From Escherichia coli (GTDB lineage Bacteria; Pseudomonadota; Gammaproteobacteria; Enterobacterales; Enterobacteriaceae): a stretch of 64,000 nucleotides of DNA. The notes under the pieces were generated by a model, which worked only from the letters and a program-made list of their open reading frames with translations, ran no database searches and had not been told where the DNA came from. Location of the stretch: assembly GCF_024298765.1 (NCBI RefSeq), contig NZ_CP101210.1. One strand, 5' to 3'. The translations under genes and the position numbers were made by a program. Shown piece by piece: positions 11,463-36,356 of this stretch; the stretch's first letter is position 1; each line of letters starts with the position of its first letter.

Positions 11463-12287
11463 ATGATTTTGACTCCCATACGACGATATGGGGCGATGAT
11501 TCTTATGTTACTCACTCTGGTGTTTTCGAGTGAGGTGTTAGCGAAGACGCACACAACAACAGCGAGTCAAAAGTCCCACTTAACTAAAGCTAGTAATAAA
11601 CAGGTAAGCAGTAAACAAGAGTATTCTCGCAATAGTGCAAAGAGTAGTTCACTTCCTGATTTGCGAAAATACCCTTCCGGAACACCAAGGAAAAAGGCGT
11701 TTCTCCGGACCGTAATGCCTTACATTACCAGCCAAAATGCAGCCATTACTGCGGAACGTAACTGGCTGATTTCAAAACAGTATCAGGGCCAATGGTCACC
11801 TGCTGAGCGTGCGCGTCTGAAAGACATCGCCAAACGCTACAAGGTGAAATGGTCTGGTAATACGCGAAAAATCCCGTGGAATACCTTGCTCGAACGCGTA
11901 GACATTATCCCCACCAGTATGGTGGCGACGATGGCTGCAGCAGAAAGCGGTTGGGGAACGTCGAAGCTGGCGCGCAACAACAACAATCTGTTCGGCATGA
12001 AATGCATGAAAGGACGTTGTACTAATGCGCCGGGTAAAGTGAAGGGGTACTCACAGTTTAGTTCTGTCAAAGAATCGGTGAGCGCCTATGTTACTAACCT
12101 GAATACGCATCCGGCTTACTCTTCGTTCCGTAAATCGCGTGCACAGCTGCGTAAAGCGGATCAGGAAGTGACTGCCACAGCGATGATTCACAAGTTGAAG
12201 GGCTACTCGACCAAAGGGAAGAGTTATAACAACTACCTGTTCGCAATGTACCAGGATAACCAACGGTTAATCGCGGCACATATGTAA
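11463..12287 (+). CDS. bax: Bax protein, putative glucosaminidase
   Basis: 274-aa ORF with signal peptide and C-terminal glucosaminidase-like domain. Confidence 0.85.
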   Translation: MILTPIRRYGAMILMLLTLVFSSEVLAKTHTTTASQKSHLTKASNKQVSSKQEYSRNSAKSSSLPDLRKYPSGTPRKKAFLRTVMPYITSQNAAITAERNWLISKQYQGQWSPAERARLKDIAKRYKVKWSGNTRKIPWNTLLERVDIIPTSMVATMAAAESGWGTSKLARNNNNLFGMKCMKGRCTNAPGKVKGYSQFSSVKESVSAYVTNLNTHPAYSSFRKSRAQLRKADQEVTATAMIHKLKGYSTKGKSYNNYLFAMYQDNQRLIAAHM

Positions 12288-13650: not shown

Positions 13651-14832
13651 TCAAGAACGGCGTTTGGTTGCGGAGTCCATCCATACTGCCAGCAACAGAA
13701 TCGCACCTTTAACGATATACTGCCAGAAGGTCGGTACATCCATCATACTCATGCCGTTATCCAGTGAAGCCATGATGAATGCCCCCATTACCGCTCCGGC
13801 AACGCTTCCCACACCGCCAGCCAGACTGGTGCCGCCAATCACGCATGCGGCAATTGCGTCCAGTTCGGCGATATTTCCCGCAGAAGGTGAACCAGCGCCA
13901 AGTCGAGAACTGAGGATTAATCCGGCGATAGCGACCATTAATCCGTTAATAGCGAATACGGCAAGTTTGGTGCGTTCAACGTTAATCCCGGAGAGACGTG
14001 CTGCTTCCAGATTGCCGCCGATGGCATAAATGCGTCGTCCAAATGCCGTCCGCGTTGCCATAAACATTCCGCCGAGTAACAGCAACGTCAGCAGCAGAAC
14101 GGGAGTGGGAACGCCACGGTAATCGTTCAACAGCCAGATTGCGCCTAAGACGATAATCGCCGTTAATGACTGGCGACCGACAACTGCGGTAGAGGCCGGA
14201 GACTGCAAACCCAAAGCCTGACGGCGCATTCTTCCGCGCCATTGCCAGCCAACAAAAGCCATTAAGCCAAGCGCGCCAATGATGAAGCCGGTGCTGGCGG
14301 GTAGATAGCTTTGCCCAATTTGTGACATCGCGGCGCTGGTGGGGGATACAGTCGTGCCGTTGGTGATGCCAATGAGTATGCCGCGAAATGCCAACATGCC
14401 CGCGAGGGTGACAATAAATGAAGGGACTTTGCGGTACGCTACCCACCATCCGTTCCAGGCACCGAGAAGCAGTCCCAGAACCAAAGTCACAATGATGGTC
14501 AGTGGCAAAGGCCAGCCTAGCCAGACGTCACAAATCGCCGCGACGCCACCTAATAGCCCCATCATTGAGCCGACGGAAAGGTCGATTTCAGCAGAAATTA
14601 TGACGAACACCATTCCTACTGCGAGGATGCCGGTAATCGCGGTCTGGCGTAACAGGTTGGAGACGTTACGGGCGCTTAAGTAGGCACCATCGGTGGTCCA
14701 GGTAAAGAACAGCATGATTGCGATGATAGCTGCAATCATCACGAAGACCTGCAAATTCAGTGACTTCAGCCCGGAAAAGCCACCGGATGTCGGTACGGCC
14801 AATTTCACTTCAGACGGATTGCTTTTCGACAT
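13651..14832 (-). CDS. xylH: Xylose ABC transporter permease
   Basis: 393-aa hydrophobic ORF; start overlaps xylG end by 23 nt. Confidence 0.93.
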
Positions 14833-34214: not shown

Positions 34215-34919
34215 GTGTTAATGATCATAAAAAAAAGCGGTGGTCGCTGGCAGCTAAGCCTGCTGGCGAGTGTGGTAATCAGTGCCTTTTTTCTCAACAC
34301 AGCTTACGCCTGGCAACAAGAATATATCGTTGATACGCAACCCGGACATTCCACAGAGCGTTACACCTGGGATAGCGATCATCAACCTGATTACAACGAT
34401 ATTTTGTCGCAACGTATTCAAAGTAGCCAAAGGGCGCTGGGACTGGAAGTCAATCTGGCGGAAGAAACTCCTGTGGATGTGACCAGCAGTATGAGTATGG
34501 GCTGGAATTTTCCTTTATATGAGCAGGTTACAACCGGCCCGGTCGCGGCATTACATTACGATGGCACAACCACCTCGATGTATAACGAGTTTGGCGACAG
34601 TACTACCACGCTGGCCGATCCGTTATGGCATGCCAGCGTGAGTACCTTAGGCTGGCGTGTTGACTCCCGGCTTGGCGATCTCCGACCCTGGGCGCAAATC
34701 AGCTATAACCAGCAATTTGGCGAGAATATCTGGAAGGCGCAATCAGGCCTGAGCCGGATGACGGCGACAAACCAGAACGGCAACTGGCTGGATGTCACCG
34801 TAGGCGCTGATATGTTGCTCAATCAAAATATTGCCGCCTATGCGGCGCTATCTCAGGCAGAAAATACCACTAACAATAGCGACTATCTGTATACGATGGG
34901 GGTTAGTGCCAGATTTTAA
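34215..34919 (+). CDS. yhjY: Autotransporter beta-domain-like outer membrane protein
   Basis: 234-aa ORF with signal peptide and C-terminal beta-barrel ending in F. Confidence 0.8.
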   Translation: MLMIIKKSGGRWQLSLLASVVISAFFLNTAYAWQQEYIVDTQPGHSTERYTWDSDHQPDYNDILSQRIQSSQRALGLEVNLAEETPVDVTSSMSMGWNFPLYEQVTTGPVAALHYDGTTTSMYNEFGDSTTTLADPLWHASVSTLGWRVDSRLGDLRPWAQISYNQQFGENIWKAQSGLSRMTATNQNGNWLDVTVGADMLLNQNIAAYAALSQAENTTNNSDYLYTMGVSARF

Positions 34920-35033
34920 CGTAACAGTCACAATTAAAACCATTGAGTAACAATAGTTGTGGTGATAGTGGGTGCTAACTTACTAAATAATAAATTTGGT
35001 GAATAATTGTCGAGTCATTCATTCCTGAACTAA

Positions 35034-35064
35034 TGCATTTCATTCCGTTCTGATGGCATTTCAT
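35034..35064 (+). promoter_or_regulatory. Direct repeats TGCATTTCAT-N11-GGCATTTCAT (YpdB/LytTR-type site) upstream of yhjX
   Basis: Two 10-bp repeats 21 bp apart start-to-start, about 90 bp upstream of yhjX; matches the reported YpdB site architecture. Confidence 0.55.
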
Positions 35065-35147
35065 GCCGTTTTTCCCCAGGCATAAAGTGCACTTCGTTAT
35101 GGTTGTCAGCAGAGATTTTTCCTTTTTATTACTGCAGGAATACTGCC

Positions 35148-36356
35148 ATGACACCTTCAAATTATCAGCGTACCCGCTGGTTGACACTCATCGGTACTAT
35201 CATTACCCAGTTTGCGCTGGGGTCGGTTTATACCTGGAGCCTGTTTAACGGCGCGCTTTCTGCCAAGCTGGATGCGCCGGTAAGCCAGGTCGCTTTCTCT
35301 TTCGGCTTGTTAAGTCTGGGGCTGGCAATTTCATCTTCTGTTGCGGGGAAATTACAGGAACGTTTTGGCGTTAAACGCGTCACTATGGCTTCCGGCATTT
35401 TGCTGGGATTAGGCTTCTTCCTGACAGCGCATTCTGACAACCTGATGATGCTGTGGTTAAGCGCCGGTGTGCTGGTCGGTCTGGCGGATGGCGCGGGTTA
35501 CCTGCTGACGCTCTCTAACTGCGTGAAGTGGTTCCCGGAGCGTAAAGGTCTGATCTCCGCGTTCGCTATCGGTTCTTATGGTCTGGGTAGCCTGGGTTTC
35601 AAATTTATCGACACGCAGCTGCTCGAAACGGTGGGTCTGGAAAAAACTTTTGTGATTTGGGGAGCGATTGCGCTGGTGATGATTGTTTTCGGCGCAACGT
35701 TAATGAAAGACGCACCAAAACAGGAAGTGAAAACCAGCAATGGTGTCGTGGAGAAAGATTACACGCTGGCAGAGTCGATGCGTAAACCGCAGTACTGGAT
35801 GTTAGCGGTAATGTTCCTGACTGCCTGCATGAGCGGCCTGTACGTGATTGGGGTAGCGAAAGATATCGCCCAAAGTCTGGCACACCTTGATGTGGTTTCC
35901 GCAGCCAATGCAGTCACTGTTATTTCCATCGCCAACCTTTCAGGTCGTCTGGTTCTGGGGATACTGTCTGACAAAATCGCCCGAATCCGTGTTATCACCA
36001 TTGGTCAGGTGATTTCGCTGGTGGGTATGGCGGCCCTGCTGTTTGCACCATTGAATGCAGTGACGTTCTTTGCAGCGATTGCCTGCGTGGCGTTTAACTT
36101 TGGCGGCACTATCACGGTGTTCCCGTCACTGGTCAGTGAGTTCTTCGGCCTCAATAACCTGGCGAAAAACTACGGTGTGATTTATCTCGGTTTCGGTATC
36201 GGCAGCATTTGTGGGTCGATTATCGCCTCACTGTTTGGCGGCTTCTATGTGACCTTCTACGTGATTTTCGCCCTGCTGATTCTGTCACTGGCGCTCTCTA
36301 CGACGATTCGTCAGCCAGAGCAGAAAATGTTGCGTGAGGCGCATGGCTCCCTTTAA
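35148..36356 (+). CDS. yhjX: MFS transporter (pyruvate-inducible)
   Basis: ORF trimmed to MTPSNYQRTRW start (402 aa); 12-TM MFS. Confidence 0.9.
   Translation: MTPSNYQRTRWLTLIGTIITQFALGSVYTWSLFNGALSAKLDAPVSQVAFSFGLLSLGLAISSSVAGKLQERFGVKRVTMASGILLGLGFFLTAHSDNLMMLWLSAGVLVGLADGAGYLLTLSNCVKWFPERKGLISAFAIGSYGLGSLGFKFIDTQLLETVGLEKTFVIWGAIALVMIVFGATLMKDAPKQEVKTSNGVVEKDYTLAESMRKPQYWMLAVMFLTACMSGLYVIGVAKDIAQSLAHLDVVSAANAVTVISIANLSGRLVLGILSDKIARIRVITIGQVISLVGMAALLFAPLNAVTFFAAIACVAFNFGGTITVFPSLVSEFFGLNNLAKNYGVIYLGFGIGSICGSIIASLFGGFYVTFYVIFALLILSLALSTTIRQPEQKMLREAHGSL

Follow-up and report, generated by a model that had tools for sequence, protein, structure and literature searches.

The yhjX locus and its paired repeats

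The open reading frames of the analyzed window, a stretch of 64,000 nucleotides of Escherichia coli DNA, reproduced the gene order bisC-yiaC-tag-yhjY-yhjX-eptB that is annotated in K-12 (DH5alpha). When a 401-bp query around the site described below was compared with complete E. coli genomes, matches were found in 5422 of 5426, always between yhjY and yhjX. The product of yhjX was found to be an MFS protein (Pfam MFS_1, E = 3.5e-35). Its RefSeq PGAP product name is 'L-lactate MFS transporter', and in the cited literature it is a putative pyruvate transporter.

Upstream of yhjX, two 10-mers were read directly from the sequence and indexed by a script: TGCATTTCAT at 35034-35043 and GGCATTTCAT at 35055-35064, both on the plus strand and separated by the 11-bp spacer TCCGTTCTGAT at 35044-35054. 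The yhjX ATG at 35148 lies 83 nt 3' of the end of the second 10-mer and 114 nt 3' of the start of the first. An earlier sequence-only reading had placed two 10-bp repeats with an 11-bp spacer at 35034-35064, about 90 bp upstream of yhjX; these coordinates were exact, and the rounded distance is acceptable for the 83 nt measured from the end of the second repeat to the ATG. The features of the region are listed here.

about 35011..35068, plus strand: equivalent of the K-12 footprint-sized fragment, from a base-for-base alignment with the same 11-bp spacer
35014..35025, plus strand: box 0 (GTCATTCATTCC), a degenerate third copy set exactly 21 bp 5' of site A
35034..35046, plus strand: site A, the upstream high-affinity YpdB box, TGCATTTCAT with the conserved 3' extension TCC
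35044..35054, plus strand: spacer TCCGTTCTGAT, 11 bp between the 10-mers, with 8 nt (35047-35054) between the 13-nt boxes
35055..35067, plus strand: site B, the promoter-proximal low-affinity YpdB box, GGCATTTCAT with the conserved GCC
35098..35103, plus strand: putative -10 hexamer TATGGT of the yhjX promoter, assigned by conservation only
35148..36356, plus strand: yhjX CDS (402 aa), the regulated target, from the ORF list and from RefSeq-annotated loci in synteny, among them K-12 and UTI89

The window contained eight pairs of exact 9-mers with offsets of 15-30 nt, compared to 3.5 +/- 1.9 in Markov shuffles; short-range pairs of this kind are not rare, and the argument that the repeat is unusual was therefore rejected. 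Other exact 9-mer direct repeats were seen at 13916, 16811 and 50421 (offset 21), and also at 2805, 44095, 45236 and 440. Since the offsets of all eight pairs were divisible by three, most of these pairs are probably in-frame coding repeats. The window was also searched for a published motif pair specified beforehand, GCATTTCAT-N12-GCATTTCAT, allowing up to three mismatches. Against an expectation of 0.11 per window, there was one match with 0 mismatches plus one overlapping match with three mismatches, the latter being the third box, and the match to this pre-specified pair is far from chance. Single copies of GCATTTCAT at 11997 and 59375 (minus strand) were unpaired, consistent with chance, and were dropped as candidates. 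The pair at 35034-35064 also has the generic geometry of LytTR-type operators (repeats of 9-11 nt, 11-13 nt apart).

Correspondence with the YpdB operator of K-12

The YpdB (PyrR) site of the K-12 yhjX promoter (Fried et al. 2013; Behr et al. 2016, PMC4847170) has the same locus, boxes, 11-bp spacer and flanks as the pair in the window. The target of YpdB in PyhjX is GGCATTTCAT, present twice as a direct repeat, and the two copies were named sites A and B (Behr et al. 2016, PMC4847170). Site A has a high affinity, about 1.2 nM, with slow on and off kinetics, and the affinity of site B is approximately 10-fold lower; all YpdB binding is lost when A is inactivated but not when B is (PMC4847170). 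The K-12 fragment given in Table 1 of the same paper, CGCGTCATTCATTCCTGAACTAAGGCATTTCATTCCGTTCTGATGGCATTTCATGCCG, covers all DNase I-protected nucleotides, the footprint limits of Fried et al. 2013 being taken here through PMC4847170, and the paper also reports an effect of flanking bases on expression in vivo.

When this fragment was aligned with the window it fell on 35011-35068 with the same spacer, and 56 of the 58 bases were identical. The two differences from K-12 were at 35013 (A compared to C), outside the boxes, and at 35034 (T compared to G), which is position 1 of site A. Box B was an exact copy of GGCATTTCAT, and box A matched it at nine of 10 positions with T at position 1, an allele common to approximately 30% of complete E. 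coli genomes. The sequence-only reading had given the upstream copy as TGCATTTCAT but left the meaning of the difference aside. The sequence-only reading had likened the repeats to the architecture reported for YpdB at this promoter, and the comparison with the published site bore this out, since that site maps exactly here and not elsewhere in the promoter.

The stretch at 35034-35064 is very probably the known YpdB (PyrR) operator in a common allele, intact and in the correct 21-bp register, and the allele most likely has no effect on control. The data establish that the sequence agrees with the published site, where it lies, how far it is conserved and how frequent the allele is; from these we infer that YpdB binds and that pyruvate induces yhjX in this strain. 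The regulatory site being intact, yhjX should still respond through YpdB when pyruvate is present or under acid or serine stress. The operator is already known, and the current understanding is changed neither by the degeneracy of position 1 in the published motif nor by the one-base difference of K-12-derived reporters from the UPEC promoter.

The genes ypdA and ypdB do not lie within the 64-kb window. They were present at a coverage of at least 80% in 5414 of 5426 complete E. coli genomes. In strain 104, a chicken isolate with a 100% match to positions 34850-35250 of the window (401 bp), ypdA, ypdB and ypdC were intact and the YpdA and YpdB proteins were the same as those of K-12. Control 'conserved in this strain', as claimed earlier, is thus a statement made with strain 104 as a proxy. 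The annotation of these genes has drifted: MG1655 (locus L122, 4672-7118) now names ypdA and ypdB pyrS and pyrR.

The mechanism proposed for this promoter is the one published for K-12. External pyruvate would activate the kinase YpdA, and in UPEC the non-cognate kinase BtsS would also be able to do so. One phosphorylated YpdB monomer would bind to the upstream high-affinity box A and, with box A occupied, a second YpdB monomer would be loaded onto box B, which has low affinity and adjoins the -35 region. Recruitment of RNA polymerase would follow, and yhjX, encoding an MFS transporter linked to pyruvate, would be transcribed; the rapid release of YpdB from B and then from A would give rise to pulsed expression (the 'AB-BA' model; PMC4847170).

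The motif of BtsR is reportedly ACC[G/A]CT[C/T]A with a 13-bp spacer, as described by Kraxenberger et al. in 2012, and is unlike that of YpdB. BtsR (YehT), acting at btsT/yjiY, belongs to a paralogous pyruvate-sensing LytS/LytTR system of E. coli, whose site is likewise a direct repeat and whose target is a single transporter (PMC5552118). The operators of AgrA and of other LytTR regulators are direct repeats of 9-11 nt, 11-13 nt apart, lying just upstream of a weak -35 and occupied by two LytTR domains (PMC4847170). They have no shared consensus, and YpdB instead binds sequentially as monomers, A then B.

Occurrence of the paired boxes in other species

A collection of one genome per species was scanned with exact paired 9-mers at fixed spacing, and at least 120 stretches were obtained. 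The 18 core columns and the spacing are fixed by the search pattern, so that unbiased information comes from the flanks, position 1 and box 0 alone, and the absence of a species (e.g., Salmonella) from the matches listed means nothing. In at least 28 species of Enterobacteriaceae, the pair preceded the aligned yhjX start by 74-90 nt (by 80-90 nt in all but one of the 28 listed), and the yhjX orthologues downstream of it showed 82-99% identity. The genera represented were Escherichia, Citrobacter, Enterobacter, Leclercia, Lelliottia, Kosakonia, Phytobacter, Cedecea, Shimwellia, Mangrovibacter and Pseudescherichia. At a further locus (L114) the pair was present without a YhjX hit because the contig ends.

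Among the matches listed, TCC after box A and GCC after box B were invariant in the 28 Enterobacteriaceae, and the gap sequence beyond TCC drifted freely between species in a 30-sequence alignment. As judged from these columns, the conserved boxes would be 13 nt long, KGCATTTCAT[T/G]CC, with an 8-nt gap between them. The 11-bp spacing was the same in all 28 listed loci, but the pattern fixes the spacing and this is no test of register conservation. The remaining matches of the scan were unrelated; most were repeats in AT-rich or coding sequence.

In many genomes of Flavobacteriia and Bacteroidia (loci L004, L038, L040, L048, L054, L066, L074, L078, L117 and L120), AT-rich intergenic DNA also carried paired TGCATTTCATCG(A/G) boxes that share the 21-bp register. 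No YpdB-like gene was detected near these boxes at E < 1e-6, and they may be sites of another LytTR regulator.

In at least 11 non-enteric loci, the pair was located directly after a gene for a LytS-type kinase and a gene for a LytTR regulator. The taxa in which it lay 3' of ypdA-ypdB homologues were Paenibacillus, Clostridium, Romboutsia, Limosilactobacillus and a Spirochaeta MAG. In five Paenibacillus species among the matches listed, the next gene was a yhjX homologue with 46-47% identity, and the YpdA and YpdB homologues of Paenibacillus terrae were 63% and 61% identical, respectively, to those of E. coli. These distant loci tie the motif to YpdB-type regulators, an independent guilt-by-association apart from the E. 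coli experiments.

In Paenibacillus and one other genome, the ypdA-ypdB homologues, the operator and a yhjX-like MFS gene formed one contiguous cassette (L023, 2187-6074; L073, 790-4781; also L021, L027, L111 and L105). The kinases and regulators of the cassette were 57-63% identical to the E. coli proteins, values unusually high for a comparison between phyla that suggest the sensing module was transferred horizontally. When translations were read by eye, the next gene was CstA-like in Romboutsia and in the Spirochaeta MAG and LrgA-like in Limosilactobacillus; the loci with the pair downstream of lytS/lytT-like genes were L012, L062, L046, L015 and L082. One operator type seems to serve three unrelated transporter families.

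A comparable arrangement has been described for the LytT boxes of B. subtilis pftAB, which are 13 nt long and 8 nt apart and thus have the same 21-bp register (Charbonnier et al. 2017, PMC5626966). As in the yhjX case, a pyruvate-responsive LytS/LytTR system controls a pyruvate transporter (PMC5626966). The target there is the LrgAB-like PftAB rather than the MFS protein YhjX, and the likeness set out here is one of geometry. The similarity of the YpdB site to the LytT site was noted by the authors of PMC5626966, and because that similarity is already in print, the idea of presenting cross-phylum operator conservation as a discovery was rejected; it is taken here as support.

Alleles, the third box and the yhjX promoter

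The 61-mer of the window at 35015-35075 was found exactly in 1626 of 5426 complete E. coli genomes (approximately 30%) and the K-12 61-mer in 3606 (approximately 66%). The T at 35034 is a major polymorphism rather than a private mutation. The same T allele is present in UTI89 (ST95), which between 35002 and the ATG differs from the window at a single base, 35088. The native yhjX transcript of UTI89 surged as measured by RT-qPCR, and the surge was absent in a btsS ypdB double mutant (PMC9765748). The stimulus was acid and not pyruvate added directly, the acid effect being traced by the authors to pyruvate made from serine, and the lux reporter of that study carried the K-12 promoter, so that only the RT-qPCR bears on the T allele (PMC9765748). 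K-12-derived PyhjX reporters in UPEC are one operator base off the native UPEC promoter.

In the 28 Enterobacteriaceae species among the matches listed, position 1 of box A was G in 19 and T in nine, and that of box B was G in nine and T in 19. Neither A nor C was seen at position 1 in these 28 or in the 11 distant ypdAB/lytST-linked operators among the matches listed, and all four bases occurred there in the unrelated hits of the same scan. The G-to-T change at position 1 of box A looks neutral because this position is G/T-degenerate across the family. The occurrence of the allele in 30% of genomes, the G/T variation across species and the induction in UTI89 indicate that the change most likely does not break control. 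The published 10-mer does not discriminate at its position 1, and motif searches would be better served by KGCATTTCAT or by the 13-nt KGCATTTCAT[T/G]CC.

Upstream of site A, box 0 was found as the 3-mismatch match of the paired pattern. It agreed with box A at nine of 12 positions, and its species consensus agreed at 10-11 of 13 when aligned to the 13-nt box. The consensus was G-Y-C-A-T-T-C-A-T-T-C-C, with columns -20 to -9 almost invariant in the 28 Enterobacteriaceae among the matches listed; box 0 lies outside the search pattern and its conservation is therefore unbiased. It is present in the K-12 oligo (PMC4847170, Table 1), inside the DNase I-protected/SPR fragment, and is not named there as a site.

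Three other explanations were weighed against that of an intact operator in a neutral allele. That the repeat is a chance or relic duplication without a regulatory role is vanishingly improbable. It could draw on the frequency of exact short-range 9-mer pairs in the window (8 compared to 3.5 expected), but the site matches an experimentally defined binding site, its position is kept in dozens of species among the matches listed while the spacer sequence drifts, and in other phyla it lies alongside ypdAB homologues; what has been published on binding and mutagenesis effectively refutes this explanation. We regard it as quite improbable, though less remote, that YpdB binds more weakly when position 1 of box A is T, with pyruvate induction of yhjX attenuated or its threshold shifted relative to K-12. 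Position 1 was freely G or T in the 28 Enterobacteriaceae and 11 distant operators among the matches listed, UTI89 with the same allele showed a strong ypdB/btsS-dependent surge of the yhjX transcript, and the footprint region has no other difference but 35013, which is outside the boxes. What speaks for weakened binding is that box A must be occupied first, its inactivation abolishing all binding (PMC4847170), and that the published consensus has G at position 1; the split of the alleles (approximately 30% compared to 66%) makes a lineage-level quantitative difference conceivable.

A three-box operator, in which box 0 would contribute to activation as a weak third YpdB contact or as the site of another factor, is doubtful but the most plausible of the three. 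Box 0 stands in exact 21-bp phase and resembles box A, it is nearly invariant in the 28 Enterobacteriaceae among the matches listed although it was not used for selection, and it falls within the fragment covering all DNase I-protected bases; in addition, an influence of flanking bases on in vivo expression has been reported (PMC4847170). In contrast, SPR resolved only two binding modes, and the loss of binding when box A alone was mutated means that box 0 cannot bind on its own (PMC4847170); moreover, no comparable third box was seen in Paenibacillus or the other distant operators among the matches listed. It is unlikely, somewhat more so than a contribution of box 0 as such, that boxes 0, A and B form a 21-bp array in which box 0 tunes cooperative YpdB loading or DNA bending, and in which, through the G/T polymorphism, the pyruvate threshold or the shape of the pulse would then differ between K-12 and lineages of the kind of ST95 UPEC. 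For the operator read as intact and in a neutral allele, only quantitative uncertainty is left, about a possible effect of the T allele or of box 0 on affinity.

Downstream of site B, the 30-sequence alignment of the matches listed showed T35098 and A35099 to be invariant and T35103 to be at least 90% conserved, forming a TAnnnT pattern. The hexamer TATGGT at 35098-35103, 30 nt downstream of box B, is likely the -10 of yhjX. With the -10 in this position, site B would lie at about -55 to -43, just upstream of a poor -35. The one hit of a generic sigma-70 scan of 34880-35200 was unrelated and lay upstream, with none where the promoter would be expected, and we infer that the yhjX promoter has no recognisable -35, as expected of an activator-dependent promoter.

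Behr et al. reportedly found in 2014 that CsrA acts post-transcriptionally on yhjX. In the 5' leader, conserved stretches were observed at 35109-35112 (GCAG), 35133-35139 (TGCAGGA, containing the Shine-Dalgarno) and 35143-35147 (CTGCC), and a UUCCU stretch of the leader is able to pair with AGGA. The fold of the 5' UTR at 35105-35160 was not significant (z = -1.7), and no structured leader is claimed. In one water isolate, E. coli DX6 (NZ_CP126345.1; locus L126, 3711-4574), an IS1 was found inserted within site B; lying between the YpdB boxes and yhjX, it is a natural promoter disruption.
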